Below, piece by piece: positions 1,588 through 28,915 of a stretch of DNA of 64,000 bases. Origin of the DNA: Escherichia coli O157 typing phage 4. Position 1 is the first letter of the stretch. Each line of letters begins with the position of its first letter. A program made the translations under genes and the position numbers. The stretch lies in sequence record KP869102; one strand, 5' to 3'. The notes under the pieces were generated by a model, which had not been told where the DNA came from, did not search any database, and was given only the letters and a program-made list of their open reading frames with translations.

Positions 1588-1604
1588 CTTAAGGTCTCCT
1601 GATA

Positions 1605-2618: not shown

Positions 2619-2621
2619 GTA

Positions 2622-2876: not shown

Positions 2877-2952
2877 CTTGGCAGTCTCCTTAGTTATTTA
2901 AAAATCACCGATCTGTTTGTGTGAAGCATCTTATATCTAATCTTACTTCTTG

Positions 2953-3753: not shown

Positions 3754-4124
3754 TGATCGGTCTCCTTCTTGTTAAGTCTGAATACTGCAATAATAGCATT
3801 CCCAAGGTGCAGTGTCAAATCATTTCCAAGATACCACAACATTCCACGGTCATCTTTAATGAAAGGGTAACAATCTGGTGCCTTCCAGACATTGTACACT
3901 TTCCCAACCTGAAAGAAATCAGGCCCTGTTGGGATTTTGGTGCCAGGCCACACTTGGGATACCTGAACACACTCCACCTGCATAATAACAGGAATAGTCA
4001 TGGATGTAAATGTTTTTGTTGGTTCTACTACCATAAAAGTCTCCTCTTTGCTTAACAGCACCTCCCTGTGCTGATAGTTTACATTAGTGACAATCACCCC
4101 AGTTACGACCACACAAGTATTCAC
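3750..4124 (-). CDS. hypothetical protein (paralog family)
   Basis: ORF track 124 aa; KDDRGMLWYL motif. Confidence 0.5.
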   Translation of the reverse strand: MNTCVVVTGVIVTNVNYQHREVLLSKEETFMVVEPTKTFTSMTIPVIMQVECVQVSQVWPGTKIPTGPDFFQVGKVYNVWKAPDCYPFIKDDRGMLWYLGNDLTLHLGNAIIAVFRLNKKETDQ

Positions 4125-6861
4125 CTGTGATCTGGAACGGGACTCCCATCATTTTAGAAGCTTGCCAGAAGCAATGTACCACCATCTCGCCCACAGGGCT
4201 CCAGATAAGTTCAAGCTTTCCGTCATCGTTCAGGATAGGATCGTACACCGTGTTTCCGTCTCTGTCAACCACTTCGTTTCCGTTTTCATCCTTGCGTGCC
4301 TTTTTGTACTTATGACCGTCGAACACATGAAGTTTGGCCTCCTGCTCTGCCTTAAATGCTTCCAATTCTTCAATTGTGTCGAAGGTGTACACAGTCTTAT
4401 ACTTCGGTGTGTCAGGTACTTGAAGCTGATATTCGTCATGGTAATAGATAATACGACGAACACCTTCATCGTACCACCCACGCTTCACCATTTGGTGGTG
4501 CATAAGTATCCCAACTAAGTCACACAGCGATGCACCACCATTCTGTTGGTATGCATTAAGTAAAGAGTGTTTAGATCGGGTCCAGATGGCATGACCATCA
4601 AAAGAGTAGATAAACTTCTTACCCGTTGCTTCCCAGAATTTCTCCAGATCCTCTTTACGCCCCTTAAGACCAGGGTTGGCATCCCAAAGTGCATCGATCA
4701 CCCTTTGTCCCAACTCTGGAGAGATGTCCAGCATATCTGCAACTTTATCTTTTTGTGCCCCGTACATAACCCCATACGTGATAGGTTTACCGTCGTTACG
4801 AGACACCTCTCTGCCTGCTACTTTTGTATATGCCTCAGCATTGTTTTGGTGTGCGTCCCCGTTACTTACAACATCATAATACAAGCCGTTGTCGAACTCA
4901 AAGGCACCCCAAGCCCCGATAAGCTGCTCTAAGTTGGACCCGTCAATACCGATCTCAAAGTATCCTGGAGGAACACCCCACAAGCTACGCATCTCTTTAC
5001 CCATAACCACTTTAGGAGAGGGTTTAGGCATGTTTGCACAAATACTGTGTTTCTGTCTGGAAGTGTTTGTTAATCCAGAGCTTTTAGCAGGAAGCTTATG
5101 GTCAATCTTCAAACGTGGGTGATTAAGAAGACCAGTGTCAACCTTATCCTCCTTGATTGGATCAAGTACCGATCTGCGGTTTCGCAATGATAACCATAAG
5201 ACGATATCTTTAGCCATCTCTCCGTTCAATTTTTCAAGATTCGGACACAGGTGTCCAAACGTATCTTTCAGTTGCGGAGAAGTAATAAGTGCCCTAGCTT
5301 TTCTACGTATTTTCCCGAATACTTCCTTTTTAATCCTTTCGGAGTTAGGAAAGCTTCGGAACTTGTGCACGGTTGTCTGGAACTTAGCATCAGTTTTGTT
5401 CCAGAAGTTGATAATTAGGTCACAATACTCTGACTCTAAAAGCTCGTCCATATATGCATATACTCGTGCATCAACATCTGCATCAGGTAGAGCTTTCTTC
5501 TTGCTGTCTTTAGTTACATCCTTAGTTCTCCACATTGTCGGAAGCCAACCAGCACTGATCAGGTATCGCTTAATGTCGTCCTGATTGCTGATTTTCATAG
5601 GTATCTTGCAGTCCGGCATTCGCTTCTGCTGTAGATCACTTATTGCCTGATCCATTAGCTCTTTAGGTAAAGGTTGTGGTGTGGAGGTGCCCTTAATATA
5701 ACCTCTCAAGAAATCAGCCATCTTGTCGGGGTCTTTGCAGCCCATCTCTTCGCACCATTTTATCCCCATCTTGCTGACATCTCCTGTGGAGGTAAATGCT
5801 CGCTTAGGCGGGGCTTTGAACTCTAAAGCGCTCATGTCTACAGGATAGCCAAGCTTATCTTTTAACCATTTCCAACCATTATTGGAGATTGTCCCATCTT
5901 GGTTAAACGGCTTTTCAGGGAACTTGGGCCGCTGAGACATTGACAGCTCTTTTAAAGGTAGTTGTGGTTCAACACGATCAGCTATTTCTTTCATCCACGC
6001 ATCACAACGGTCACGTAAAGCAATAGCTCCATCTATGTCAAAATACACACCCTGACGGGCCTGCAGCTCCATCAGGAAGTGCTGCAGCATGCCTCGGCGT
6101 AGTGCGTTCTTCCAGGTGATCTTCTTGAACCCTTTCGGCTTCTCTTTGGCAGGATCGTACATAAAGTTCTGCATGTCAGATTTGCCGTAGAATACACCTT
6201 TTGATTCCGCTACCAGCTCTTTCCAGAGCAGCTCCTGGATGATAACGTCCTCGAATACACGATCCACATACTTCCACAATGGAAGATCGCGCCAGTCATC
6301 AATTTGAACTTTCTGGTTACCAAGGGCGTAGCCCCATGCCATAAGGCCGTGAGGACCAACAGGCTGCATTTTCTTAGTAACCGGGTTGAATACAGAGTCC
6401 GGACAACCTTTTGGTAAAGGGCGATCAGGCCACAAGATTCGGCTCATCGCCAACGTATCAAACAGATTAACCTGGTGGTCGTTGATAGTCCCCATGCATT
6501 TAGGATCACGGAACATATCAAAATGAATACCGGATAATCTTTCCATCAGCATAAAGTCATAACTGTAGCAGTTATGGCAGTTCAAAGCTGTTGGTGACCA
6601 GTCGGAATTTCCTGTAAGCCAACCTTCCAACTCCGAAAAATCTGCTATGCGAACTTCAAAATCTTTATAAAGAGTTTTCTTTGCCAGAATAAAGTTCTTA
6701 GCCTTCTCTATATCCTCCTCGGAGTAGTGTGTGCGGTCATTTAGAGGAAGGAACAGCATAAAACGGTTCTTATTCAGCTCTTTAAACAGGCCGCAATGAT
6801 AATAAAGATCTGGGTCTTCCAAGAGCCCGGAGGCCTCCAGATCGAAGCACCAATTACTCAT
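4084..6861 (-). CDS. DNA polymerase, family A (Pol I/T7-like) with 3'-5' exonuclease domain
   Basis: 925 aa; exo motif FDLEASG; polymerase motif A-like DGSNLEQL, motif B KPITYGVMYG, motif C YYHDEYQ. Confidence 0.9.
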   Translation of the reverse strand: MSNWCFDLEASGLLEDPDLYYHCGLFKELNKNRFMLFLPLNDRTHYSEEDIEKAKNFILAKKTLYKDFEVRIADFSELEGWLTGNSDWSPTALNCHNCYSYDFMLMERLSGIHFDMFRDPKCMGTINDHQVNLFDTLAMSRILWPDRPLPKGCPDSVFNPVTKKMQPVGPHGLMAWGYALGNQKVQIDDWRDLPLWKYVDRVFEDVIIQELLWKELVAESKGVFYGKSDMQNFMYDPAKEKPKGFKKITWKNALRRGMLQHFLMELQARQGVYFDIDGAIALRDRCDAWMKEIADRVEPQLPLKELSMSQRPKFPEKPFNQDGTISNNGWKWLKDKLGYPVDMSALEFKAPPKRAFTSTGDVSKMGIKWCEEMGCKDPDKMADFLRGYIKGTSTPQPLPKELMDQAISDLQQKRMPDCKIPMKISNQDDIKRYLISAGWLPTMWRTKDVTKDSKKKALPDADVDARVYAYMDELLESEYCDLIINFWNKTDAKFQTTVHKFRSFPNSERIKKEVFGKIRRKARALITSPQLKDTFGHLCPNLEKLNGEMAKDIVLWLSLRNRRSVLDPIKEDKVDTGLLNHPRLKIDHKLPAKSSGLTNTSRQKHSICANMPKPSPKVVMGKEMRSLWGVPPGYFEIGIDGSNLEQLIGAWGAFEFDNGLYYDVVSNGDAHQNNAEAYTKVAGREVSRNDGKPITYGVMYGAQKDKVADMLDISPELGQRVIDALWDANPGLKGRKEDLEKFWEATGKKFIYSFDGHAIWTRSKHSLLNAYQQNGGASLCDLVGILMHHQMVKRGWYDEGVRRIIYYHDEYQLQVPDTPKYKTVYTFDTIEELEAFKAEQEAKLHVFDGHKYKKARKDENGNEVVDRDGNTVYDPILNDDGKLELIWSPVGEMVVHCFWQASKMMGVPFQITGEYLCGRNWGDCH

Positions 6862-7592
6862 ACTGTCTCCTCCTGTGTCTTCTCAGCATTCTTTCTTGCA
6901 GCTATTGCATCGTCCCTGTTCTTGAAATACCCAAGGCATTTCCTTTTACCATCTACATAAATTCTGGCTACCCATCTTTCATGGGTTTTATCCCAATTCA
7001 CCCCTGAGCAACCGCTGGTGTTATTATACTGCACGGCTCTTCCACTCTTGTGCGAAAAACCATTATCTTCGAAGAACTTTCTTGCCCACTCTGCCTCTTC
7101 AAAAGTTCTGTACTGGCCTAGCCAGACCCTTTCACCTACAGAGTCTGTGCCTTGAGCTACCCACGCCTCTCTTTCTTCAGAATAGTGCACCCCGACCCTG
7201 CCAGATTTGTTGTTGCTACGAGGTATCTTGCAACTTTTCTTTTTGTTATCTGTAGGTTCGAGTAGTTGCAAATTTTGAATACTGTTGTCAGCCACACCAC
7301 CTGTTTCCCTTATCTCCTTGATGTGGTCAACCTCATACCCTTCTGGTACAGGACCGTTAAACATTTCCCAGATTATAACGTGGGCACCTTTAGTGCAATG
7401 CTTTCCTAGACTAACCACAGGCCTGCCATCAGCATCTTGCCCCTTGTCAGCTCTGGAGCCTGCTGAAGTTTTAACATATCCTACACCGCTGCCTGCCAGA
7501 ATGTCTATCTTCCAAAAAAGATTTTGACCGTCATACTCCAATATTTCTGACCACAAGTGATTGGCTACACAGTGATCTCTGAACTCGTTCAT
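6858..7592 (-). CDS. HNH homing endonuclease with two AP2 DNA-binding domains
   Basis: 244 aa; HNH_3-like VIIWEMFNGPVPEGYEVDHI...NLQLL; two AP2-like repeats (GVHYSEEREAWVAQ, GVNWDKTHERWVARI); free-standing between pol and primase-helicase. Confidence 0.85.
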   Translation of the reverse strand: MNEFRDHCVANHLWSEILEYDGQNLFWKIDILAGSGVGYVKTSAGSRADKGQDADGRPVVSLGKHCTKGAHVIIWEMFNGPVPEGYEVDHIKEIRETGGVADNSIQNLQLLEPTDNKKKSCKIPRSNNKSGRVGVHYSEEREAWVAQGTDSVGERVWLGQYRTFEEAEWARKFFEDNGFSHKSGRAVQYNNTSGCSGVNWDKTHERWVARIYVDGKRKCLGYFKNRDDAIAARKNAEKTQEETV

Positions 7593-7650
7593 AAAGTGTT
7601 CTCCTTAAAGGGGAGGCGGTTGTACTACCCCTCCCACTCTTTGTTAAACA

Positions 7651-9729
7651 TTAAAAAGGTGTTTCATCATCCTCAAAACCAGGAACATGGTCAGAGGACG
7701 GATCATCGTACTGGAGGTCTTCCTGCGTGTCAACAGGCTTAACAGTAGGAGTTACAACCTTATCAGCCACAACCTTACCCATAGGTGTTTCTACAACTGC
7801 ATGCTCCTGATCCTCAAACATAGCCTGAGGTCTCCAAACAACCTCCCCACCTTCTCCATCTGTAAACATTTGCATTTCTTTGTCCCAGTACCAATTACTG
7901 GCATCATGGAACTTACCTGTATGTGGGTCCATAACCAAAGTGTCTGCAATACCTAAAGTTTTTGCTGGACGGTTTTTAAGACCTACCAGTCGGACACGCC
8001 CACGAGAACGATCCACCATTTCTTCGGCCTCGACACCTATGACTACCCAACTCAACTGTTCAAGCCCAGCCGATCCTCGCAAATTCTCTTTTCGCACAGG
8101 ATACCAGAAAGGTAACGGGTTACCATCCTTGTCCTTAGGAGGCACAATCTCTGTACGTTTGAGGTGAGCGATCACCAAGATAAACACATTGAACTGCTTA
8201 CAAAACGCAGCCAGCTGGGTCATAGCCATGTCCAGTTCTTTTCGCTCATCCTTAACATTAAGCCCCGAAATTACCATGGACAGGTGATCCAGCACAATAT
8301 AACGGCAATGGTACAGGCAAACCATTTGCTTAAGCTTGGTAATCAACTCGTCCACCGGAATAGACCCGAAATGTTTGAACACTTTGATTTTTCCAGCTTT
8401 TGCCCATGATTGGTGAATCTCTGCGTGTTCTTGATCAGTTAAAAACTGGCTAGGATCTTCAACAAACTCTTTAACATCAAACCCTAGCTGGTTTGCATAC
8501 AAGGAGTTAATTGCTTCCTCTGGGTCCTCCTCAAGATGGATCATGCATAGACGATCATCCTCTTCATAGTCATCGGCCTTCGGGCATGTCGGGTCCATCA
8601 AGTATCTTGCAATACAATGTTCCAGTTTTTTAGCTACAGTTGTTTTACCGCCCCCTGATGGCCCTGTAAGCATTACGAGTGTCCCTTTGTGCAAGCCTTT
8701 TAGCATTTTTTGCAGTTTTGGAAACTCTGCGCTGATATCTACCCCGTTGGAAGTCTTTTTCCGCAAAGATTCGATAGAGAAGTCTTCTAAATCCGACACA
8801 GCATCAGGCACATACTTAACAGGATGCCGGAACATGTTTACAATATCTTCCAGCTTTTTAGCCTTTAGCATGTCACGGATATCTTTTACACCGTCAGGAT
8901 CGTTTACCTCACCGGGGTATTCTACGTGGTAAACGTTATCAGCCATCAAAAATGCTGCGATATTGTGCGTGGCCTCAACACCTTTAATGACGTGTTTTTG
9001 CTTCTCTACCTCGTTAGCTGCATCGTTATCCATTGCCAGCACAACTGTTCCATAGCTACGGATAAACTTCTCATTGTTTGCAAAAGTATCTACTGCGTTT
9101 GCACATCCACAGTTAATTCCAACAAAAGGCAGGCATGGTTTTCCTGCCAGATCGCCACCGTTGATAACTGCATCGATCCCGTCCTGGACCTCTTTAGCCC
9201 ACTGTTTCACCTTTGCCGGGGCTTTAGCGTTGGTGAGAATCCCTTTTACTTGTATCTGATATGCAGCCTGCCATGCTGCAATAACATCACCTTCTCCCTC
9301 ACAAACGTTAATCTGCTTACGGTTGTTGGAAGATGCACACAGCTTTTGACCAAACATCTGAGAGTTAGCCTTTACTATGCCAACAACGGAGAAATGGCCT
9401 CTTTGCTCTTTAGGAATCGTCCAGTCACGCTTTTTGAAACCGGACAGATTTCCGTAGCGGTCGTAATATGGGAAATATGTTGCAGTGACTGTCACACCAT
9501 CTTCTTGGGATAATGCTGATCGCACACCAAAATATTGTGCAGCCATCAGACCGATATTTTGTTGTGGGACAGGGACAATTTTAGTATTTTCTAAAACAGT
9601 CTCTACAGTTTCAACTTCTTTTTCATCACGATAGTCTCGTTTCACACTTCCCCCACTTTTATACTTAGTTGCTTTCGGGTTTGGCTCACCGAAACGGTTG
9701 TATGCAGATGCCATAAATTTACTTCCCAT
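7651..9729 (-). CDS. bifunctional primase-helicase (T7 gp4-like: TOPRIM primase + DnaB-family helicase)
   Basis: 692 aa; TOPRIM VCEGEGD and MDNDAANE; Walker A TGPSGGGKT; Walker B IVLDHLSMV; acidic C-terminal tail ending in Phe. Confidence 0.9.
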   Translation of the reverse strand: MGSKFMASAYNRFGEPNPKATKYKSGGSVKRDYRDEKEVETVETVLENTKIVPVPQQNIGLMAAQYFGVRSALSQEDGVTVTATYFPYYDRYGNLSGFKKRDWTIPKEQRGHFSVVGIVKANSQMFGQKLCASSNNRKQINVCEGEGDVIAAWQAAYQIQVKGILTNAKAPAKVKQWAKEVQDGIDAVINGGDLAGKPCLPFVGINCGCANAVDTFANNEKFIRSYGTVVLAMDNDAANEVEKQKHVIKGVEATHNIAAFLMADNVYHVEYPGEVNDPDGVKDIRDMLKAKKLEDIVNMFRHPVKYVPDAVSDLEDFSIESLRKKTSNGVDISAEFPKLQKMLKGLHKGTLVMLTGPSGGGKTTVAKKLEHCIARYLMDPTCPKADDYEEDDRLCMIHLEEDPEEAINSLYANQLGFDVKEFVEDPSQFLTDQEHAEIHQSWAKAGKIKVFKHFGSIPVDELITKLKQMVCLYHCRYIVLDHLSMVISGLNVKDERKELDMAMTQLAAFCKQFNVFILVIAHLKRTEIVPPKDKDGNPLPFWYPVRKENLRGSAGLEQLSWVVIGVEAEEMVDRSRGRVRLVGLKNRPAKTLGIADTLVMDPHTGKFHDASNWYWDKEMQMFTDGEGGEVVWRPQAMFEDQEHAVVETPMGKVVADKVVTPTVKPVDTQEDLQYDDPSSDHVPGFEDDETPF

Positions 9730-16120: not shown

Positions 16121-16130
16121 NNNNNNNNNN
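16121..16130. other. assembly gap (N10)
   Basis: Run of 10 N. Confidence 0.95.
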
Positions 16131-16440
16131 CTCAATGGTGACTACGTGCAGTGTTTTAGCCACGCCCAGTGGGTCGTCTACCTTAAACCCGCGATCCAGG
16201 ATGATCTGCAACGCATTGATGCTATGCCCCGTTTCCACACCGATAGGGTCGTAAGAGGATTTACGCTTGCCACCGGAGCCTTGAGTGCCGTTCTCTGCCT
16301 TAGGGGGATAGGCTTTGAAACCACTGATAATGTTTCCGGTGTCTTTGTCAACAATGGCTGCAACACGACCACCTACCACCAGATCTTTAAGCTGCTCATC
16401 GGTGACAACCATAGCACCTTCGCCAATCTTGTGGTCATTG
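16131..16440. repeat. 310-bp near-identical copy of window 21-330 (synonymous variant contig)
   Basis: By-eye alignment: about 6-7 substitutions; track translation of 16098-16454 (-) is identical to my translation of 21-330 (-). Confidence 0.85.
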
Positions 16441-16450
16441 NNNNNNNNNN
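16441..16450. other. assembly gap (N10)
   Basis: Run of 10 N. Confidence 0.95.
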
Positions 16451-16605
16451 GCACGATTGCATACCTTTGACAGATAATCTCATTACAGAGCGTTTAAGAG
16501 CTTCCTACAAACAAATCTCTCTTTCGAGCGTAGCGAGAACGCACGTCCGTTTTGACCCAAATCACCATACGCTCGGATTTTAACCAAACCCTCGCGGCGT
16601 TTCTA

Positions 16606-16634
16606 TTGACACATTACCGCTCCAGTGATAATAT
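16606..16634 (+). promoter_or_regulatory. sigma70-type promoter (TTGACA-17-TAATAT)
   Basis: -35 TTGACA at 16606-16611, 17-nt spacer, -10 TAATAT at 16629-16634; ATG at 16667 follows. Confidence 0.5.
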
Positions 16635-16666
16635 CCACACATAGTTTGTAGAATATGGGGTACACT

Positions 16667-16756
16667 ATGAGAACATTGTCCGAAGTTTTGGTGGTGATCC
16701 TGATGATCATTACGTCCATAGCGGCTGTTGCCGGAATACTCACGGGTGGAACATGA
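16667..16756 (+). CDS. hypothetical 29-aa hydrophobic micropeptide
   Basis: Manual ORF MRTLSEVLVVILMIITSIAAVAGILTGGT just downstream of the promoter; weak RBS. Confidence 0.35.
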   Translation: MRTLSEVLVVILMIITSIAAVAGILTGGT

Positions 16757-16965
16757 TAAACACACATGCATCTGAAGAGACATCCAAAGGAGTGACTATA
16801 TGTCCCTTGGCTGAGCCAGTGAAAGAGGAAAACTTCGATTCTGAAGATTCTCCATCTTCGCTCCAGGTAGATCCTGAGGCTGATGACCTAACGTGGGAAG
16901 ACATCGTAGATATCTGGTTCTCTATTATGCCTGAGCACGAAGAGTTCAGGGGTGGTAGACTATGA
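16753..16965 (+). CDS. hypothetical acidic protein
   Basis: ORF track 70 aa; same strand as promoter; no clear RBS. Confidence 0.3.
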   Translation: MINTHASEETSKGVTICPLAEPVKEENFDSEDSPSSLQVDPEADDLTWEDIVDIWFSIMPEHEEFRGGRL

Positions 16966-17086
16966 AGCACCGAGCCCACACAGGTTCCTCATGCTAAAGC
17001 ATGGCCTGAAGAGGCAAACGTGCATAATTCCTGTACATTGGGACGTATAAAACCCTGTTCACATTCTCATTTCCAGAGGAGATTTC

Positions 17087-17302
17087 ATGAAGATAGAAAT
17101 ATTTGGTGGAGCTGACAATACTCGTGGCCTGATTTACCTTGAATTCGATGAATCATACCTGCCAGAGGTGTTAAATATGGACTCTGTTGCTGATGCTTTG
17201 GGAGTAAGTCCTAAAGATCTCTACTCTGGTGCTGAGATTGATGGTTGGGAGGAGACCATGAACATTGATTTCAGTGAAGTAGGTGATGAACCACTGGACT
17301 GA
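17087..17302 (+). CDS. hypothetical acidic protein
   Basis: ORF track 71 aa; RBS AGGAGA upstream of ATG. Confidence 0.5.
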   Translation: MKIEIFGGADNTRGLIYLEFDESYLPEVLNMDSVADALGVSPKDLYSGAEIDGWEETMNIDFSEVGDEPLD

Positions 17303-18142
17303 CACACAATTAGCTACCCGGCTAAAGTGCTGGGAGCACCTATAACACATCTTTCAACTAAATTTCCTACCACCACAATCACTTACCTCCCACACATGAC
17401 TGTTTGCTTGTTTAGTGAGCAGTCATGCCTTGACATTCTTGCCTATCCTGATAAAATTAAGTTCTTCTCTTTTCTTTTACCGAGTAATTCGGGTTTTCTG
17501 TTCTCTTCGGTTTGAAGGGGTATGGAGATACACCTGAGTGAACAGGGTGAACAACCGAACATTTGGCTATGGCATTAGCATGGCGAAGCGGACGGGTGAC
17601 GAAAGAGGGGCCGGAGGACACCAGTCACTGCCATATGGTATATGGGTGATAACCTGAAGAGTCTGAATAAGTGTTTAAGTACCAGTCAGAGGAAAAGGTG
17701 AATGGTAGCCGAAGGGGGAGGGGGGTTTCTTGTATCTTTAATTTGTATATTATGTATACACTTGTAAACCAATCTCATTTGAATTTGTTTACCACACAAA
17801 GTGGATAGAGACAAATATTACCTATTAAACTTGAATTATTTATAGAAAATACCACAACACTACTTAAGTCTTTGATTTTACACACAAATCCTGCAGATAT
17901 TCACCCTCCATATTTAACATACTTGTAACATATTCCATACTCTACCTGCCCGATCAATTCACCCAACTACATCCCCATATTTTCCCTGTCTGTACTACCC
18001 CTGCCCCGCCGGGAGTCCCGTCATATCTGGCTTTCCAGCAAATATCACACCCACAAATATCATTGCCTGAAGAGGGTTTCGTCCCATAATACATGCCTTA
18101 CCTGAAGAGCGCTTCATATACCCCGTAAATTTTTTAATTGAC

Positions 18143-18172
18143 CCCCTCCCCGCCGCCGGAGGGGTCGGCTTT
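18143..18172 (+). terminator. possible intrinsic terminator hairpin (weak T-run)
   Basis: Stem CCCCTCC/GGAGGGG with loop CCGCCGCC followed by TCGGCTTTTCC. Confidence 0.25.
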
Positions 18173-18719
18173 TCCCACACAGACCTGAAGAGTCAGCCAG
18201 AAATATCTGAATGGACCCAATTCTGCCCTGTTATGAGCCGTAGCGACTGGAGTGCTGCCAGGCGGACGAAATGGGAATACTTCTCATTCTTATAACAATT
18301 CTCAAATATCGAGGCAGTGAGGCAAATTAATAGGTAAGGCCGTTCACATAGTGGCACAACATTTGCAGTCTATCTGATGTGGTTGAATGAGAATACCTAT
18401 CATTGTGAGAATAGTTATCATTACGGGCAATTTAACATAATACCCATTATGCGCACCACTGGCGATACATACAGGGATTGATAACATGAGTTACTGTTTA
18501 CGCATATAACAATTATATTTCTTATCATTTGTGTGGGATATAGTTAGCAGCCGATAGATTAGATATTGACCTGCGGACTTCTGACCGTCTAGACGTCTAA
18601 ACGCCCACACAACAAGGCTTATACATACATCGCTGAATGTAAACATGGCCGCAAAAATGCTACCATACAAGATTGTAAATTTTTCATGCAGCACTTGACA
18701 AAGAGGAGAAAAACTTGTC

Positions 18720-18762
18720 TGACACTTTAGACATACTGGTGACACAATATGACACTTTAGAC
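18720..18762. repeat. direct repeat, 2 x TGACACTTTAGAC
   Basis: Identical 13-mers at 18720-18732 and 18750-18762. Confidence 0.8.
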
Positions 18763-18779
18763 TTAATTGACATGCCTGA

Positions 18780-18956
18780 CTGTTTACGCTGTCACTATTC
18801 GCGCTATTACTATTCACTCCCTTTACTGTTCACGCTCTTACTGTTTACATGCTTAATGGTTTACATGCTTAATAGACTGCATGTCTAATAGTTTACATAG
18901 CTAACTGTTCACATACTTATCATTTACATGATTGACTGTTTACACAGAGATGATAA
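18780..18956. repeat. iteron-like array of TGTTTAC(A) motifs, including a tandem 16-bp unit
   Basis: (C)TGTTTAC at 18782, 18843, 18859, 18891, 18948 plus variants CATTTACAT, CTGTTCACAT, CTTTACTG; GTTTACATGCTTAATG twice in tandem at 18843-18874. Confidence 0.75.
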
Positions 18957-18963
18957 GCCATGA

Positions 18964-19234
18964 CATTCGTTTGCATGACAATAATTAACAAGATAACAAT
19001 TGACAAGCTAACAGCCAACAAGCTGACAATTAACTTGTTTACAATAGATGACATAATATAAAAGCAGGGCAACTATTAGAAGATCTATAGTTGCCTTGCT
19101 TGTTATGTCATGATTAACTAAATACAAGGCAACTATGATCTGATTAATAGTTTGCAAACAAACTATCACGGGGGTGATGGTTACTGCTTTTATATTATGT
19201 CGCGACTCCGTCGCGCCATGCCATTCGTTTGCAT
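18964..19234. repeat. 13-bp direct repeats CATTCGTTTGCAT bracketing the palindromic element
   Basis: Copies at 18964-18976 and 19222-19234. Confidence 0.8.
19050..19201. repeat. 152-bp element bounded by perfect 18-bp inverted repeats with nested palindromes (MITE-like or cruciform-forming)
   Basis: GACATAATATAAAAGCAG at 19050-19067 is the exact reverse complement of 19184-19201; internal inverted copies of AGGCAACTAT/ATAGTTGCCT and palindrome ATAGTTTG..CAAACTAT. Confidence 0.75.
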
Positions 19235-19850
19235 AGTTGCCTTATTGTTACAGATAAAATAATTGTATTGTTAATTATTTCTTATCTTTCTATTAGTCAT
19301 CTAATGATTCCAGTCAATATAGTAATGTACAGTAAACATTAGACGACTAAAGATTTATCTGCTTATAATAACTTACCGTGACAATTTCGGACTGTTTACG
19401 AAAAATGTTGGCACCTAAGCTGATTTATGTTATGCAGTTTACACGAATAATTATTTTATGCAGGTATTGACTATTCCATTATTCTATGGTTGGAATAAAT
19501 ACTTAGCAGACTATAGAATGGTGAGCGTACGTAAATTCTGAGATCTGGCGGCTATAGTTATACTCGATTTTTCACGTAGAGCACGCTTTTGTGGTTATGT
19601 AAGTGTATGACTTATAAAGATTTTTAGTTGTTGACAAGACACTGAAGATATGCATCAGGTTAAATTTTGTGCAATAGCTGCATTACGTGCAATTTTGGAA
19701 GGAAAAACGGGTAAAAATAGCCCTGCTACCACACAATGAAAAGTTATGCAATAGTTATTTTACATGTATATTTGTACAGTGTGTGGGGTTGATGGCTCGT
19801 CAATTATTCCACTTGCCAGGTAGGGCCGTTTATGGTAGGGGGAAGATCAG

Positions 19851-19876
19851 ACAAAAAGAAAGGGGCCTAAGCCCCT
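19851..19876 (-). terminator. intrinsic terminator
   Basis: Hairpin AGGGGC-CTAA-GCCCCT preceded on plus strand by an A-run (U-run on minus transcript), just downstream of the 19896 gene end. Confidence 0.55.
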
Positions 19877-19895
19877 TGATAATTCAGTTAAAAAA

Positions 19896-20315
19896 TTATA
19901 ATGATTCGTATATTTCAAAAATCCGATTTGCCAGGTCGTTACGGTACCGGAATTTTTCATCACGTTTGATCATAAGATCTTTATAGCCGTACTCTTTAAG
20001 CACTTCATTAACTTTATGGCGGCACACCTTCATATTATCCTGAGCGTCACCAATAAACCTGTTGCTATGGTGCATGGCTTTAATTTCTTCTTCCAGGACC
20101 AGGGCAACTATGCGGACCGGATCAAGCTGATAGGCGGTAACATCAATGCGGCATTGTAAACGGCTTTTTACGTCTGCCACCGGATATACTGCAACCTCTT
20201 CCCCGTCAACATTGACAATAATTAGTTTACCATCGATTTCGAATCCTTTCGCCGCCGGACCGTGACAAAAAGCGTTATCAAAGCTATATGCCGGATTATT
20301 AGATTTAATGTTCAT
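19896..20315 (-). CDS. hypothetical protein
   Basis: ORF track 139 aa; RBS GAGGTAAAAACACC before ATG. Confidence 0.5.
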   Translation of the reverse strand: MNIKSNNPAYSFDNAFCHGPAAKGFEIDGKLIIVNVDGEEVAVYPVADVKSRLQCRIDVTAYQLDPVRIVALVLEEEIKAMHHSNRFIGDAQDNMKVCRHKVNEVLKEYGYKDLMIKRDEKFRYRNDLANRIFEIYESL

Positions 20316-20354
20316 GGTGTTTTTACCTCTTAGTTAATTTTCTTACAACTTCCC

Positions 20355-20383
20355 TTTAAAAAAGAATATAGCAAAACTGCCGA
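20355..20383 (-). promoter_or_regulatory. sigma70-type promoter (TTGACA-17-TATATT on minus strand)
   Basis: Reverse complement gives TTGACA, 17-nt spacer, TATATT upstream of the 20315 start. Confidence 0.45.
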
Positions 20384-20460
20384 TCCTTGTCAATAAGGAT
20401 AGCATAATTTTTATGTGATCAAGGGGCTTTATTGCCCCCCTGACCATGTAACTTGTTGTA

Positions 20461-20724
20461 TTATTTGTTATTCATCCAGTTTTCCCAAGCTGCCTGATAA
20501 TCTGCTTCACTGCGGCGGATCTCTTCTTGCTCTTCAAGTCGGATCTCTTCTTCCAGGTACCCCAGGATATCGGCTTTTTTGGTCTGGCGTAACATCCAAT
20601 CATCTTTTTTACGGGTAAAGATCTTATATGCTTTCTCGCAAACCTCTTTTTTGCTACCTTTTTGGACTTCAAGAACTTTGTAGGCCATGTACTGAACTAG
20701 TTTGAGCTGATCAAGACGTTTCAT
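20461..20724 (-). CDS. hypothetical protein
   Basis: ORF track 87 aa; RBS AGAGGT; preferred over the overlapping 20472-20672 frame. Confidence 0.5.
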   Translation of the reverse strand: MKRLDQLKLVQYMAYKVLEVQKGSKKEVCEKAYKIFTRKKDDWMLRQTKKADILGYLEEEIRLEEQEEIRRSEADYQAAWENWMNNK

Positions 20725-20784
20725 GATGTTTACCTCTTTATGCGGTTCTGATTAGTGGGCCTTTTGGCCCGTGTCATTATCTTA

Positions 20785-21057
20785 TTACTTATGGCGGCAG
20801 AATTCAAGCGTTTTTAATTGATAATCTTCCTCAGCCTGGAGTACGACCGCCTCGATCATTTCGTTGGCATTGTTAAAGCCATAACCTTTAGCGAAATCAT
20901 CCGCGCCACCTTCGTGATCATGTTCTGCGTTCATCGCTTCCACAAAATGGAATTCCAAATTGTTGAGGTAGGGGCTTGATGTTCCGTCCTCTTTTTCGAT
21001 GAGATCCCAAATAGCATTAAAACGTGATTCTACTTCTTGATTAATCCAGCTTGACAC
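20785..21057 (-). CDS. hypothetical protein
   Basis: ORF track 90 aa. Confidence 0.5.
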   Translation of the reverse strand: MSSWINQEVESRFNAIWDLIEKEDGTSSPYLNNLEFHFVEAMNAEHDHEGGADDFAKGYGFNNANEMIEAVVLQAEEDYQLKTLEFCRHK

Positions 21058-21268
21058 AGTGTTTTCCTCTCTTCTGGTTGTTGTGTGGGCACTTTTGCCC
21101 CTTCAAGATAAATGTTACCCCACCCCATGGCAGATGTCAACGGTTTTTATAGTTCTTATATGACAGGCAGGCCCGGTGATTGTCTCCCCCCGTCGCCAGG
21201 TGCCTGCCGTGAAACAAGTATAACAAAAAACAGGACCATTGCAAGCCCTGTTTTGTAGTTTATAAATA

Positions 21269-21460
21269 TTATATTTTTTCGCCTATGTAGTCCGGTCGGT
21301 TTTTCTCTGTCATGCGCTTTAGCAATTCTTGCATGTTGCTTATGGCTTGTAGTGTATCCCCTTCCAGGCTTGAATCGACATAATCAGGATCGTCTATGAC
21401 CTTTCTATGATTATGATAACGCAGTACCGCCAATACCTTTCTGACTTGTTCGATATTCAT
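21269..21460 (-). CDS. hypothetical protein
   Basis: ORF track 63 aa. Confidence 0.45.
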   Translation of the reverse strand: MNIEQVRKVLAVLRYHNHRKVIDDPDYVDSSLEGDTLQAISNMQELLKRMTEKNRPDYIGEKI

Positions 21461-21472
21461 TTTTACCGCTCT

Positions 21473-21607
21473 TTAAAACAAGGTGCCAACCGTTTCCAAT
21501 AGATCACTGACTGCCAGGACAATACCGATCAGCACATATCTAACCATAAGGGGAAAGAGCGCCAATATTGCCACCACAATCCCCAAGGTGATAATTATCT
21601 TTCTCAT
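21473..21607 (-). CDS. hypothetical 44-aa membrane peptide
   Basis: Manual ORF MRKIIITLGIVVAILALFPLMVRYVLIGIVLAVSDLLETVGTLF; below the track length cutoff; abuts the upstream gene. Confidence 0.35.
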   Translation of the reverse strand: MRKIIITLGIVVAILALFPLMVRYVLIGIVLAVSDLLETVGTLF

Positions 21608-21609
21608 GG

Positions 21610-21903
21610 TTAACGGTTCACGTAAGTTTTCCCGTTCACGGTTATGGGCAGATCCTCCAGGTCTGGATCTTCCTTAAGGTCGCGAGCAAGCTCACCGCAC
21701 CGGATACCCTCGAATCCGTAGTACTCTGTTGTGCCGTCCTTAAAAGTTTTAGCGGCAAGGCATAAGCGATAAGTAACCCCGATTTGATTGACGGCATGAA
21801 TATCCGTTAGATTAACCTCTTTTGCCAGCTCTTTAGCCATTACAGGCGCATTAAGTCCAACAACCAGGGCAACCACTGCGATCATCTTTTTCATTGTGTC
21901 CAT
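21610..21903 (-). CDS. hypothetical secreted protein (N-terminal signal peptide)
   Basis: 97 aa; N-terminus MKKMIAVVALVVGLNAPVMA. Confidence 0.55.
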   Translation of the reverse strand: MDTMKKMIAVVALVVGLNAPVMAKELAKEVNLTDIHAVNQIGVTYRLCLAAKTFKDGTTEYYGFEGIRCGELARDLKEDPDLEDLPITVNGKTYVNR

Positions 21904-21985
21904 CCTCTTTCTGCTACGTTTAAGGCGGCGGTAACCGCCTGTTTATGCTTTGTTGGTTAATTTTCGGGTATAGGTATAAATTAAA

Positions 21986-22201
21986 CTATGCTGTACGCTC
22001 AACTATAACAACGGCTTGAGGGATCTCACCTTCAACCACTATCAAGGCTTTTTTCTGCGTGATAGATATCTTTACCCGCTTCAGCGTGGCGGTAAAATCT
22101 TTCATTTCGTCACGTGGTGTTTTAGTGCAATACCAGATCTCAGGCTTGCCGATCTGTAAGTTGCGTAAAAATTCTGTTTTGCCTGTTTTGTTAGTGATCA
22201 T
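21986..22201 (-). CDS. hypothetical protein
   Basis: ORF track 71 aa. Confidence 0.45.
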   Translation of the reverse strand: MITNKTGKTEFLRNLQIGKPEIWYCTKTPRDEMKDFTATLKRVKISITQKKALIVVEGEIPQAVVIVERTA

Positions 22202-22210
22202 TTGGCAACC

Positions 22211-22315
22211 TCACCCGATACCGTTGGAAGACAAGATCGCATTAGCCATGGTTGCAATCAGGCCAATACCCAGGGCAATAACCAAGATCACTGCATCGAT
22301 TAATTTCTGTTTCAT
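22211..22315 (-). CDS. hypothetical 34-aa membrane peptide
   Basis: Manual ORF MKQKLIDAVILVIALGIGLIATMANAILSSNGIG; weak RBS. Confidence 0.35.
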   Translation of the reverse strand: MKQKLIDAVILVIALGIGLIATMANAILSSNGIG

Positions 22316-22392
22316 GGTGTTTATTCTCTTCTGTTAGTAACCTTATTCATGGGGCCGCTACCACAGCCCCAAGGTAAGGCAGCTATGTGCTT

Positions 22393-22638
22393 TTAGTGTT
22401 TCATTCCAACCATCGCGGCACGGATCGCCGTAGTGCTGTACTTGAAGCCGTCCGGGGTCTTATCTTGTCCGGTTAGCTCCAGAAAAAGCATCATATCCCG
22501 CGCCGCATCATTACGATTAGCATTGGCGTTAATAAAGCCTTGGGCCAACCGGTACAATGACTCATCGTTATTAATCCAAAGGCTTACATTCCAATGAGTT
22601 TTGTTTTTGTAACCGTTATAACCTTTATTGCTTTTCAT
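22393..22638 (-). CDS. hypothetical protein
   Basis: ORF track 81 aa. Confidence 0.5.
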   Translation of the reverse strand: MKSNKGYNGYKNKTHWNVSLWINNDESLYRLAQGFINANANRNDAARDMMLFLELTGQDKTPDGFKYSTTAIRAAMVGMKH

Positions 22639-22729
22639 GGTGTTTACCTCTTCTTTGTTCCAGGTGGCGGATCATTCTACCACCTTATGTATTATGCTTT
22701 GTTAGATGGTTGTTTGTTGTCAAACTATT

Positions 22730-22909
22730 TTACCGATAATCATCATATGCTTTATTTACCTGGCGAATATAACATTCAAAAGCCAAATCAATAGATTTAT
22801 ATTCACGGATATACTCACCATAGGAAACCACATACATTTCTATAGCTTCCTCATATGCGAGGAGAATAGAATCTAAGCCTACGATCTCAGTCTTTGCAAT
22901 AATAGCCAT
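22730..22909 (-). CDS. hypothetical 59-aa protein
   Basis: Manual ORF MAIIAKTEIVGLDSILLAYEEAIEMYVV... with RBS AAGAGGA upstream. Confidence 0.45.
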   Translation of the reverse strand: MAIIAKTEIVGLDSILLAYEEAIEMYVVSYGEYIREYKSIDLAFECYIRQVNKAYDDYR

Positions 22910-22985
22910 GATTTTTTATCCTCTTTGTGGTTGGTGGGGTTCGTTGCCCCCTTTGATTTATATATTACAGTCTTATATGGTCATG

Positions 22986-23219
22986 TCAACTATTTTCAAA
23001 AAATTTTTCTGCTGTGATATTCTTCCCGGTAGGGTTCGCTACTTTCAAAATTTTATCATGCACTGGACGCCCAAAAGAATAAGCGCCGTACACAGTAAAC
23101 CAATAATCGCCGTCAGGTTGTACTATTACTGCCGCATATGGTACGCCTTTTTCGTTTTTGCTGACAAAATAGATCACGTTGCCATTAATAGCCTCGGCGC
23201 GTTTAATTTGTTCCATCAT
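22986..23219 (-). CDS. hypothetical protein
   Basis: ORF track 77 aa. Confidence 0.5.
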   Translation of the reverse strand: MMEQIKRAEAINGNVIYFVSKNEKGVPYAAVIVQPDGDYWFTVYGAYSFGRPVHDKILKVANPTGKNITAEKFFENS

Positions 23220-23275
23220 GATGATTTGCCTCTCTTTATTTTCATAATTGGGGGGCCTTTTCGGCCCCGCCAGGT

Positions 23276-23626
23276 TTATTTATTGATAGCGTGCAGCGGG
23301 AAAGGTACGCCAGGTTGATAGATAACCTTTACAACCTCATCAGGACAAAAGAAGTTGCAGAACTCACCGCAATAGGCCTCATCCTCTTTCAACTCTTCAT
23401 CAACATACTCAAAAAAGTAGTCGATGCTTGGATAATCTTGACCAGGGTTATAATCAACCATAGTGAGGACCAGTTCAAGATCATTGCGGATGATATGCAT
23501 ACCAGCTTTTAAATACTTCGCTTCCATTTTTACTACATCGCCAGCGGTAACAATAGCCATGGTTTTAACTCCTGTTTCTGTTAATGATTGGAGGCATAAC
23601 CCCCCTCGACAACTCTTATTATCCAT
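23276..23626 (-). CDS. hypothetical protein
   Basis: ORF track 116 aa. Confidence 0.5.
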   Translation of the reverse strand: MDNKSCRGGLCLQSLTETGVKTMAIVTAGDVVKMEAKYLKAGMHIIRNDLELVLTMVDYNPGQDYPSIDYFFEYVDEELKEDEAYCGEFCNFFCPDEVVKVIYQPGVPFPLHAINK

Positions 23627-23785
23627 ATTGTAGGGCTTGATGCAAGTACTTCTTTAAAAAATTTTTAAGTGCCTTGGAGGCCGCTGTAACGCCAAAATAA
23701 TAAAGGCCATGCAACCGCATAGCCTTTATGTGATTATATCGCTGCAGGCCCTGCTAGGGGCCTTATTTTGCATCATTTGCCGGAA

Positions 23786-24094
23786 CTATACAGAGAAAAC
23801 ATCGTTCACAATAGCGATCACAATGCCGCCCACCTTGTCACGGTCAACAATGCACAAATCACCATAGATCATGTGGTAGTCTGGATGATCTTTCACGGAA
23901 TAGTCAATGAGCGTTTTCTTGTCGTCCAGCTTTGTAACTTCCATTCTCATAACGATATGAGAATCATCAAAGGCATTATTCCGAAAAGTCATAGCCTGAC
24001 CACCAGGGCACCCAGTGATCTCCACTTCCACACCGTCTACGATCTGACCATCAAAGAAATAAAGATTATTAGCCAGGATAAACATGTTTATCAC
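23786..24094 (-). CDS. hypothetical protein
   Basis: ORF track 102 aa. Confidence 0.5.
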   Translation of the reverse strand: MINMFILANNLYFFDGQIVDGVEVEITGCPGGQAMTFRNNAFDDSHIVMRMEVTKLDDKKTLIDYSVKDHPDYHMIYGDLCIVDRDKVGGIVIAIVNDVFSV

Positions 24095-24177
24095 TCCTTG
24101 TTAACTGCGTGTTATTTTACCACGATTAAAATTTACTTTACTGATGGCCCTGGCGTCAAGGCCATCTAAAAATAAAT

Positions 24178-24378
24178 TTACAGGCCTACAATCTCTTTGA
24201 TTCGTTTAACTGCTGCCTCAGCGCCTTGGGGGTAGAAATTATGGTAACCGATCACGCGAGTGATACTAATCGCAGTTTGATGATCTTCATAATAGCCCTT
24301 GAAGATTTCTTGACCGTCAATCAGCACGGCAATTTTTTCTTCTTTTTTGAAGTTAATAACGCGGATATTGTTGCTCAT
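24178..24378 (-). CDS. hypothetical protein
   Basis: ORF track 66 aa. Confidence 0.45.
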   Translation of the reverse strand: MSNNIRVINFKKEEKIAVLIDGQEIFKGYYEDHQTAISITRVIGYHNFYPQGAEAAVKRIKEIVGL

Positions 24379-24493
24379 TTTGTTTCTCCTTTCTGGTTTT
24401 TGTGTTGGTGGGGATTAGCTCCCCGTTGATTATTATTATCCATATTTCGGACCGGATTGCAACACCCCGGAAGAAAAATTTTTTGAAAAAGTT

Positions 24494-24517
24494 AGGCCCC
24501 CAGGGATCGGGGGCCGT
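24494..24517 (-). terminator. intrinsic terminator
   Basis: Hairpin GGCCCCC-AGGGATC-GGGGGCC preceded on plus strand by an A-rich run. Confidence 0.5.
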
Positions 24518-24519
24518 TA

Positions 24520-24639
24520 TCAGTTACTTACAGCGATAAAATACATCCCTACGCCTAACAATATTTCAAGGGCGATGATCTCAAGCCATACCATAACCCG
24601 GCGCACCTTATCGGTGCGGGGCTTATCCTTGGTTGTCAT
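24520..24639 (-). CDS. hypothetical 39-aa membrane peptide
   Basis: Manual ORF MTTKDKPRTDKVRRVMVWLEIIALEILLGVGMYFIAVSN; strong RBS AGGGGGAGA. Confidence 0.45.
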   Translation of the reverse strand: MTTKDKPRTDKVRRVMVWLEIIALEILLGVGMYFIAVSN

Positions 24640-24881
24640 CGTCTCCCCCTTTCATCCTGGTAGTAGTGACGTGGTTTACAATGGCCCCCAGGAGTACCAT
24701 CACCACGCACATCACAAGAAAAATTATCTCTGTCGTTGTTCGATCCATTGTTATAAAATTCCTTAAGATCAGGCCTGAAAATAAAGCGTTCGTTATTGAA
24801 TCCATCACGCCAGGCGGCTGGCTTCAAATCTTCATCAAAGGGATTAATTAACGTGGTATTATTTAAACGGCTGGCCCACAT
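24636..24881 (-). CDS. hypothetical low-complexity protein
   Basis: ATG at 24881 with GAGAGGAA RBS; preferred over the RBS-less overlapping frame 24623-24808. Confidence 0.4.
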   Translation of the reverse strand: MWASRLNNTTLINPFDEDLKPAAWRDGFNNERFIFRPDLKEFYNNGSNNDRDNFSCDVRGDGTPGGHCKPRHYYQDERGRR

Positions 24882-25263
24882 ATTTTCTATTCCTCTCAAA
24901 TAGGCGATCCGCCTCAGTTAAACAAATCTCATGGGCGTGATCTCTGGTTTTAGCTTCATCGAAAACCTGTTGTGCAAGGCTGCAGCGTAGGGAGACTGGA
25001 AGATCACTATAATAGGCGTTGACAAATGTTTGCGCGTCATACAGGTCGGAAAATACTTTACCCTTTCTATTATCGCCTTTGTCAACAATTGCAAGGATAA
25101 CAAGTACAATAGTTGCAACCACCCCCAGGAAAATAGATATAATAAACCATAAAAAGGCGGATCTACCCATCTTGCCAGCGATCCAGGCGTTAAACAAGGC
25201 AACTAATACGGCCAAAATAATAAATTCCATTCTATGTACCTCTTTTGCAGTTCTGTTTAACAA
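24859..25263 (-). CDS. hypothetical membrane protein
   Basis: 134 aa; two hydrophobic helices (FIILAVLVALFNAWIAG and FLWFIISIFLGVVATIVLVILAIV). Confidence 0.5.
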   Translation of the reverse strand: MLNRTAKEVHRMEFIILAVLVALFNAWIAGKMGRSAFLWFIISIFLGVVATIVLVILAIVDKGDNRKGKVFSDLYDAQTFVNAYYSDLPVSLRCSLAQQVFDEAKTRDHAHEICLTEADRLFERNRKYVGQPFK

Positions 25264-25294
25264 TAAGGCGGCAAATATGCCGCCTGTTACCTGA

Positions 25295-25675
25295 TTAAAA
25301 ATTATCGCCGTAAATCTTTCCGCTTTCTGCCCACACCACCACGCGGGGCATACTATCCCACACGTCTTGTTTTAGATTGAGCGCGTGCAATTCTTCGGTG
25401 GTGCCCATACCAGGCACGGGCTGATTGTATACTGCAAAACGACCACCTGCATAATCATAGGCCAGGGTTAAATCACACTGAATCATCTTTTTGATCATGG
25501 CGTTGAGCATAGCGTTAGCCGCATACTGGTCACGTTTTAAAGGCAACTCTTTGATTAGTTTGCGATAGTTTTCAATGTGATCGCACACTGTTTCACGTGG
25601 AAGATCTTTCATATCCTCGCGAAAGGTAACCAGGTTAAACATAACGGTGTCAATAGCTTTAGTAGTGTTTTTCAT
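25295..25675 (-). CDS. hypothetical protein
   Basis: ORF track 126 aa. Confidence 0.5.
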   Translation of the reverse strand: MKNTTKAIDTVMFNLVTFREDMKDLPRETVCDHIENYRKLIKELPLKRDQYAANAMLNAMIKKMIQCDLTLAYDYAGGRFAVYNQPVPGMGTTEELHALNLKQDVWDSMPRVVVWAESGKIYGDNF

Positions 25676-25766
25676 AATGTTTTCCTCTTTGTTTTGTGTG
25701 GGGCAAACGTCTTGCCCCCCCTTGAGTTTTAATATAGCAAGTTTTTAGATTATTGCAACACTTTAT

Positions 25767-26295
25767 TTATGAAAAACTCATCTCTCCATATTCATCCACA
25801 TCAAACCGCCAATCATTGGCCTCAATAAGGCCGATCAGGTTTTCGGTAGTGAACTGTTCTAGATAGGCCTCCTCCAGGTCTACGTAAACCTTGCGGGATA
25901 GCTCCCGTACCGTCTCGGTGATCAGCTCTTCCAGGTCTTCCACTTTGTTTTCTTGTTTGGCGGTCAGATCTAGCCAGGTGGTATCAATGTATCCGCTTAC
26001 AGTGTTTTCATGGCTGTAATGGCTGTACTTGTCGCGTTCAATACTGGCTGATAACTCGCCATCGTGCATTGTGCCAAACAAGTGACGAATTGATCGGAAC
26101 TTGGTCAGGGCCTTTACTTTACGCAAGAATTTTTCTAAATCCACGTTTTCAGCACTGATTGACGCGCCGTCACCCTGGCACCAAAAGCCGGACCAATGTA
26201 CATCGGTATCTTCAAGGCCGTACTCTGGAAAAACTTGCTCTTTATAATATTCAATTACACTTTCTGCGAAAAAATCCTCTCCGCTGTGTTCTTCT
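25767..26295 (-). CDS. hypothetical protein, N-terminus cut off by the assembly gap
   Basis: Track reports 125 aa from an internal GTG, but the frame stays open upstream to the N-run at 26296. Confidence 0.5.
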
Positions 26296-26305
26296 NNNNN
26301 NNNNN
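26296..26305. other. assembly gap (N10)
   Basis: Run of 10 N. Confidence 0.95.
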
Positions 26306-26448
26306 CTTCTTCTCAAGTTCTGCACGGCGGTCTCGTGCTTCTTTACGGGTTTTGAAATGTTCGTAGATGAAAATCATCTTGGTCTCCTTATTTGATGTTA
26401 TTCTTTGTATCGATCAGTTCACGGTATTCAATCATAGCAGGAGTGTCC
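26306..26448. repeat. exact 143-bp copy of 15977-16119 (contig-end overlap)
   Basis: Identical sequence by eye; contains the start of the 14842-16047 gene and the stop of the rIIA-like gene. Confidence 0.85.
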
Positions 26449-28867: not shown

Positions 28868-28878
28868 AATAACTCCAA

Positions 28879-28903: not shown

Positions 28904-28915
28904 TGGTCTTAGAAA

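Follow-up and report, generated by a model that had tools for sequence, protein, structure and literature searches.

The window, the whole 64,000-nucleotide stretch analysed here, is divided by three runs of exactly 10 N at positions 16121-16130, 16441-16450 and 26296-26305 (spacers 1, 2 and 3), all three located where a sequence-only reading of the same DNA had placed them. No N runs are present in the window beyond these spacers, which delimit four pieces of 16120, 310, 9845 and 37695 nt. Piece 1 (1-16120) is a contig cut by the window start and carries the replication module through rIIB together with the last 21 codons of rIIA, while piece 4 (26306-64000) is cut by the window end and runs from rIIA onward into the tail-fibre and baseplate module. 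Both were placed by alignment to JES2013 and isim. Piece 2 (16131-16440, minus strand) is a 310-nt contig consisting of an internal gene fragment with neither start nor stop codon, and piece 3 (16451-26295), placed by alignment to JES2013, isim and C7, contains small early-type genes on either side of an ORF-poor region. The rIIB gene (14842-16047, minus strand) encodes 401 aa, matches PHROG 609 RIIB at E = 1e-61 and is annotated as rIIB in isim and JES2013; the Pfam search returned nothing for it. The rIIA gene (26388-28370, minus strand) encodes 660 aa and was identified by a full-length match to PHROG 612 RIIA at E = 6e-124, the Pfam domain HATPase_c_3 and annotation. Searches of the whole window against Rfam at gathering thresholds and for tRNA genes found nothing.

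Relationship to Vequintavirus genomes

Judged by nucleotide identity, the window belongs to a Vequintavirus, an rV5-like E. coli myophage. Its backbone is of the JES2013 type, the sequence being for the most part identical to that phage. The window shares 95-100% nucleotide identity with more than 100 Vequintavirus records and each piece is 91-100% identical to isim, JES2013, HdK5 and other Vequintavirus records, with 64 kb of the ~137-kb genome covered. The ICTV genus criterion is about 70% nucleotide identity over the genome. No phage record is identical to the window, the closest being JES2013 (KC690136 / NC_022323; Vequintavirus JES2013) with 99.5-99.8% identity over pieces 1 and 3 and 97.1% over the first 24.7 kb of piece 4. 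Identity to JES2013 is 100% over window positions 1-480, 1113-15600, 17394-26295 and 26451-27941 and the gene order is the same within every piece. In contrast, patches at 481-1112, 15601-15925 and 16468-17393 are 1-4% divergent, each matching alleles of other phages (BP9, C7 or isim), divergence reaches 1-20% from 27942 on (tail module), and the circular order of JES2013 is pieces 3, 1, 4 instead of the 1-2-3-4 of the window. The vequintavirus vB_EcoM_HdK5 (MK373780), whose ends are defined, is collinear with the re-ordered window but only ~91-97% identical to it.

True positions of the four pieces

An exact repeat of 144 nt links the 3' end of piece 1 (15976-16119) to the 5' end of piece 4 (26306-26449). 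The sequence-only reading had reported a 143-bp duplicate of 15977-16119 at 26306-26448; the duplication is real, but its register was one base off and those two intervals are not identical. That reading had also proposed a self-comparison, and in self-BLAST all 144 nt of the two copies matched (100% identity, E = 1e-69), well outside what chance would produce. The base following the repeat differs, with an A at 16120, the last base of piece 1 and the base found in relatives, versus a G at 26450. As seen from the translation, the G replaces a Trp with Arg at a codon 21 positions ahead of the rIIA stop. It occurs in no relative, the best of 102 phage records reaching only 100/101 identity over 26400-26500, and a 40-mer with the G allele is absent from the viral_contigs, genome_contigs and metagenome_contigs collections, in which exact 40-46-mers from piece 4 likewise gave 0 matches. 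Instead of a second allele, the G could reflect an error.

Both copies of the repeat map to one reference interval in isim and in JES2013. The full isim genome has one exact copy of the 144-mer, and the 87 kb of JES2013 analysed likewise contain one, which speaks against the true genomic duplication that the sequence-only reading had named as the outcome contradicting it. Each copy is flanked by its natural neighbour and, on the opposite side, by an N10 run, so that no actual sequence joins either copy to piece 3. We infer that the duplicate is the graph overlap of two adjacent contigs and not a genomic repeat. Complete relatives place these contigs next to each other at the rIIB/rIIA pair, which together with the overlap bears out the earlier proposal that the piece ending at 16120 is contiguous with the piece starting at 26306. 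On JES2013, with its record joined end to start, piece 1 aligns gap-free at 99.78% identity to 120854..136910 and then 1..63, and piece 4 starts at 136829. On isim, piece 1 maps to 17369-33587 and piece 4 to 33443-70212. On either genome the two overlap by 145 reference positions. Of 118 related phage records, 86 cover a merged-junction query made of 1 kb from each side as a single stretch, at up to 99.5% identity. The other matching records include ones linearised at rIIA, for example JES2013, whose record ends at window position 16057. The first 24 codons of rIIB fall within the 144-nt overlap, and only the merging of pieces 1 and 4 brings rIIA immediately upstream of rIIB on the minus strand, yielding the adjacent same-strand rIIA-rIIB pair seen in the genus Vequintavirus.

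Piece 3 is a misplaced 9845-nt contig. It maps 8.5-9.2 kb upstream of window position 1 instead of between rIIB and rIIA, as expected from the earlier suggestion that the ~10-kb stretch between the junction ends belongs elsewhere. It corresponds to 101851-111695 of JES2013 at 99.52% identity, with no mismatches over window positions 17394-26295, and to 136912..138269 followed by 1..8859 of isim. In C7, 8539 nt separate the end of piece 3 from window position 1. The intervening stretch, missing here, corresponds to JES2013 111696-120853. Window positions 18261-18719 are homologous to the 459-nt direct terminal repeat of HdK5, in which positions 1-459 equal 138870-139328, and the two ends of the HdK5 record map to 18261 and 18719. 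A terminal redundancy of 458 bp has been published and is cited for the HdK5 terminal repeat (PMC6563267). By this homology, piece 3 holds the virion terminal repeat, with 18261-18719 probably representing the physical genome ends. Where HdK5 carries the repeat at both ends, the window has a single assembled copy of the region within piece 3, which fits a repeat that assembly has collapsed. At the right end of the piece, an ORF homologous to Ec2_00174 / isim_19 (25767-26295, minus strand) is cut by the contig end, its frame being open to the gap edge; it covers profile positions 31-200 of 201 of PHROG 5162, lacks ~30 N-terminal residues, and had no match in the Pfam search.

Piece 2 is a second haplotype, or allelic duplicate, of window positions 21-330 (minus strand), a JES2013-type allele located inside the homologue of Ec2_00199 / isim_41 in piece 1. 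This second duplication, absent from the sequence-only reading, was detected by self-BLAST, which aligned 16131-16439 with 21-329 at 98.1% identity (6 mismatches, E = 4e-151). All 6 in-frame differences are synonymous, and the same 103 aa, matching profile positions 178-280 of 393 of PHROG 4477, are encoded by both copies. The final base of piece 2 also differs, with G at 16440 versus A at 330. Phages C7, C9, A112b and BP9 carry the sequence of piece 2 with 100% identity. Self-BLAST revealed no other alternative-allele contig in the window.

The window thus strings together four contigs from the assembly of an rV5-like E. coli phage. The N10 spacers link them in an order other than that of the genome, and the arrangement represents an assembly artefact instead of a biological feature. 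According to the isim and JES2013 mappings, the real distances between pieces comprise an overlap of 144 nt, ~16 kb backwards, ~9 kb backwards and ~25 kb. All four pieces share one orientation, which has a chance of 1/8 for independent contigs. Records of rV5 and JES2013 conventionally start close to where pieces 1 and 4 break, at distances of 63 nt on one side of that origin and 82 nt on the other. The position of this break combined with the uniform orientation hints at a reference-guided step. Sorting by reference coordinate, rotation of the circular map and sorting by length were considered as origins of the piece order and none fits. Compared with the genome, the scaffold runs through the pieces in reverse cyclic order, which for three blocks would happen by chance in 50% of cases.

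Contig ends and the origin of the scaffold

In both piece 2 and piece 4, the first 144 nt agree exactly with piece 1 and the next base differs. Piece 2 shares 21-164 with piece 1 and the first variant follows at 165, while in piece 4 the variant is the G at 26450, which together with the A at 16120 forms the two branches of a fork. The same overlap length thus recurs at a second contig start, although these are two cases only and k is deduced from them. The last base of piece 1 and that of piece 2 are both differing bases. No variant occurs in the 194 nt that separate the patch at 15601-15925 from the fork at 16120. This signature of the contig ends points to assembly-graph forks with a k of about 145 and to two related genotypes among the reads. 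Such a read set would contain two close genotypes, either from a mixed lysate or population or from carry-over reads of another phage. A k-mer graph assembler with k ~145 would then have split contigs at polymorphic sites after variant-free runs longer than k-1, and the contigs would subsequently have been concatenated with no valid linking evidence. Co-assembly of two haplotypes appears to be the cause.

This scenario is similar to de Bruijn graph forks and strain-mixture 'bubble' contigs in its fixed-length exact overlaps (144 nt, twice), in contig ends on variant sites, in the presence of a short alternative-allele contig and in a long contig whose phasing is lost where more than k-1 nt pass without a variant. 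In contrast to typical fork contigs, the 5' overlap is kept here and the 3' overlap is absent. A standard unitig would also hold 144 nt past the last variant, and pieces 1 and 2 do not. A k of about 145 exceeds the limit of several common assemblers. The 144-nt rule was not observed at the ends of piece 3, where the first JES2013 mismatch lies 17 nt in and the last base equals that of JES2013, C7 and isim, so that the breaks of piece 3 are not attributable to a known variant. The proposed loss of phasing concerns piece 1. Its sequence equals that of JES2013 from 1 to 480 and that of BP9 from 331 to 1637, and the switch of type falls inside the 150-nt variant-free stretch 331-480, longer than 144. 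BP9 was discarded as a full-length second reference since its record turns to lambdoid prophage genes after a truncated rIIB.

A draft pseudo-scaffold of four de novo contigs, mis-ordered, with overlapping pieces 1 and 4 and caused by two genotypes, is very probably the best explanation of the window. Were the scaffold order real, a 10-kb segment with the terminal-repeat and iteron region would have moved between rIIB and rIIA and created a true 144-nt direct duplication. This order is what the scaffold as given shows, its pieces share one orientation, and Vequintaviruses are mosaic with indels such as HNH endonuclease genes. Yet both joins to piece 3 are N10 runs, with no sequence linking the 144-mer to it, and its right end cuts an ORF ~30 codons from the start, leaving the supposed insert without intact ends. 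Piece 2, an unrelated internal gene fragment of 310 nt, would need to have been inserted too, and the segment would have to be missing at its normal place, which falls outside the window. None of 123 records of relatives has the end of piece 3 running directly into piece 4, the adjacency that this order predicts. We consider a real rearrangement extremely improbable.

Departures from the preferred pseudo-scaffold reading that retain the mis-ordering of the pieces concern the reads and the joins. The phage may have been clonal, with a JES2013 backbone and real recombination patches, and the forks may stem from foreign reads in place of a mixed population, so that piece 2 and the A/G branch would derive from another vequintavirus in the same run or from the reference used in assembly. 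The small size of piece 2 (just 310 nt) as the sole alternative-allele contig in the window, the match of the divergent patches to alleles of BP9, C7 or isim expected for natural mosaics, and the break between pieces 1 and 4 beside the record origin used for rV5 and JES2013 are all compatible with clonality. However, the switch in piece 1 sits exactly in the sole variant-free stretch of more than 144 nt following the piece 2 locus, which is predicted by phasing loss in a mixed graph and would be a coincidence for a natural crossover; overall a clonal origin seems unlikely to us. A reading milder than a real scaffold order is that the reads come from a culture in which two vequintaviruses were recombining, in which case the switches of JES2013/BP9 type and JES2013/isim type would be fresh crossover tracts. 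As for the joins, the N10 spacers could have been introduced when the contigs of a multi-contig record were later strung together as listed in the file, each join receiving a spacer of fixed length, with no scaffolder involved. All spacers have the same length of 10, the true distances between the pieces (144-nt overlap, ~16 kb and ~9 kb backwards, ~25 kb) are compatible with no paired-end insert size, and the source scaffold was not found as a single contig in three contig collections. On the other hand, the uniform orientation is unexpected for raw contigs, though its chance is still 1/8, and a minimum gap of 10 Ns is also written by some scaffolders, as in the Velvet manual. Later concatenation is accordingly a serious candidate that falls a little short of being our favoured account of the joins.

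Consequences for interpreting the window

The finding is a matter of data hygiene and not of biology. Operon, synteny, repeat or insertion calls across 16121-16130, 16441-16450 and 26296-26305 are invalid, the 144-nt and 310-nt duplicates are not to be scored as genomic repeats, and the gap-cut ORFs at the piece ends are not pseudogenes. As two genotypes may be combined in a chimeric consensus, SNP-level or recombination inferences drawn from the window are unsafe. If the scaffold order were true, it would mean that a genome had been extensively rearranged within a genus whose members are otherwise strictly collinear. With pieces 1 and 4 merged, the rIIA-rIIB pair of this phage is intact, and piece 3 carries the probable genome ends.

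N runs and duplicated sequence

The window contains exactly three N runs of 10 bases each, located at 16121-16130, 16441-16450 and 26296-26305 as the sequence-only reading had claimed, which divide it into pieces of 16120, 310, 9845 and 37695 nt (pieces 1 to 4). The duplicate reported to flank the gaps exists but was placed one base out of register and is 144 nt long instead of 143 (15976-16119 = 26306-26449; self-BLAST E = 1e-69). The intervals 15977-16119 and 26306-26448 are not identical, and the first base past the repeat is A at 16120 and G at 26450. A further duplicate, absent from that reading, was revealed by self-comparison: the entire 310 nt of piece 2 (16131-16440) represent a 98% copy of window 21-330. 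The only remaining internal similarity found by self-BLAST is a weak 62-nt direct repeat (47575-47636 and 49633-49694, 82% identity). It maps within the homologue of a 5.5-kb ORF annotated as an Ig-like domain protein in relatives and so probably reflects a domain repeated inside one protein.

Placement of the pieces in Vequintavirus genomes

All four pieces are 91-100% identical to genomes of Vequintavirus, the rV5-like myophages of E. coli with genomes of ~137 kb. For mapping, we used the complete genome of phage isim and the record of phage JES2013 with its end linked to its start. Piece 1 corresponds to isim 17369-33587 and aligns gap-free to JES2013 120854-136910 followed by 1-63, while piece 4 corresponds to isim 33443-70212 and starts at JES2013 136829. 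These mappings indicate that pieces 1 and 4 are one locus represented by two contigs. Their overlap comprises the first 24 codons of rIIB (14842-16047, minus strand, PHROG 609), a 10-nt spacer and the last 21 codons of rIIA (26388-28370, minus strand, PHROG 612; both by reference annotation). A synthetic junction merging pieces 1 and 4 at the overlap is present in one stretch in 86 of 118 matching records, the others including records linearised at rIIA, for example JES2013. The scaffold-order junction of the piece 3 end with the piece 4 start occurs in 0 of 123 records. Complete isim and the 87 kb of JES2013 examined each hold one copy of the 144-mer, which argues against the true genomic repeat that the earlier reading had named as a refutation.

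Piece 3 maps to isim 136912-138269 followed by 1-8859 and to JES2013 101851-111695. Its true site is upstream of window position 1 by 8509 nt (isim), 8539 nt (phage C7) or 9158 nt (JES2013), and the intervening 8.5-9.2 kb are not part of the window. Both the proposed contiguity of the piece ending at 16120 with that starting at 26306 and the assignment of the ~10-kb stretch between them to another site are thus borne out. Piece 2 maps to isim 17389-17697 and is an internal fragment of a gene, and the right end of piece 3 interrupts an ORF ~30 codons from its start. The piece 3 right end and the piece 2 boundaries are contig breaks rather than biological joints.

Homing-endonuclease genes differ in presence among these genomes: an HNH gene beside the DNA polymerase (6863-7588) is shared with JES2013 (Ec2_00211) and missing in isim, while the isim HNH gene isim_53 is missing from the window (4437/4438 junction). 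Many unannotated MG0656xx records bear the label 'Campylobacter phage' and list C. jejuni as host, and their identity to E. coli vequintaviruses is 97-100%; C7, the one such record examined, carries an UNVERIFIED flag and is classified as Vequintavirus, and the host labels look doubtful. The record of phage BP9 (PP488543.1), titled 'complete genome', carries at 124134-138295 a truncated rIIB and then IS2 InsA, integrase, exonuclease VIII, ea22 and other lambdoid genes to the record end, and looks like phage sequence fused to host prophage DNA during assembly.

Within piece 3, divergent gene blocks are separated by an ORF-poor stretch of 2.6 kb (about 17303-19895), where GC falls to 35% at 19-20 kb and short tandem arrays occur at 18388-19034. 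The motif ACTRTTYAC has 9 matches in the window versus 2.5 expected, 8 of them within 18493-19399, these 8 all on the plus strand. With their iteron-like appearance, the repeats make the stretch a candidate replication origin or packaging region. Directly adjoining the iteron-like cluster, 18261-18719 is homologous to the 459 nt that phage HdK5 carries as a direct terminal repeat (record positions 1-459 = 138870-139328; PMC6563267), and by analogy the physical genome ends probably map to this region.

A second allele and the probable origin of the contig breaks

Pieces 1 and 2 carry different bases at window positions 165, 195, 204, 273, 291, 294 and 330. Because the in-frame differences are all synonymous, leaving both 103-aa translations identical, and piece 2 is 100% identical to C7, C9, A112b and BP9, we infer that it is a genuine second allele and not noise. 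Piece 1 shows no mismatch to JES2013 over 1-480 or to BP9 over 331-1637, and thus switches type inside 331-480, a 150-nt variant-free stretch; within 481-1112, 24 sites set it apart from JES2013. The backbone of the window is that of JES2013, with zero mismatches over 1-480, 1113-15600, 17394-26295 and 26451-27941. Departures are confined to the tracts 481-1112 (identical to BP9, and to C7 as far as 1087), 15601-15925 (identical to isim), 16468-17393 and 27942-64000, the tail-fibre module, where divergence reaches ~20%. Either these tracts are natural mosaicism, or the consensus is a chimera built from two genotypes.

Pieces 2 and 4 each begin exactly 144 nt ahead of their first variant (26450 for piece 4), the variant base terminates both piece 1 and piece 2, and the fork at 16120 is preceded by a 194-nt variant-free stretch following the isim-like patch. 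This pattern is what would be expected if reads of two related genotypes had entered one k-mer graph with k near 145. Identical stretches longer than k-1 would then break the phase and forks would become contig ends, with a co-infecting phage or carried-over reads as potential sources of the second genotype. The G at 26450 in place of A changes Trp to Arg 21 codons ahead of the rIIA stop. None of 102 related phage records carries this base, nor was it recovered from three contig collections, and it may be a rare variant or an error.

Piece order

We found no rule behind the scaffold order of the pieces. This, combined with their common orientation and the position of the piece 1/4 break, 63 and 82 nt on either side of the origin of the rV5 and JES2013 records, hints at a reference-guided step or at plain end-to-end joining of oriented contigs by a spacer of fixed length. 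Exact matching of 40-46-mers from piece 4 against three contig collections did not recover the source scaffold. If the 10-kb segment had truly transposed and duplicated 144 nt, the Ns could mask the joins, but this event would need a truncated gene at the joint as well as a stray gene fragment, and no relative possesses such an arrangement; we regard it as highly improbable. The earlier interpretation that contig order is not genome order is supported and extended. Overall, the feature is an artefact of assembly, and the phage an ordinary representative of a well-sampled genus; the artefact is of little biological interest in itself and a useful warning for downstream analysis.
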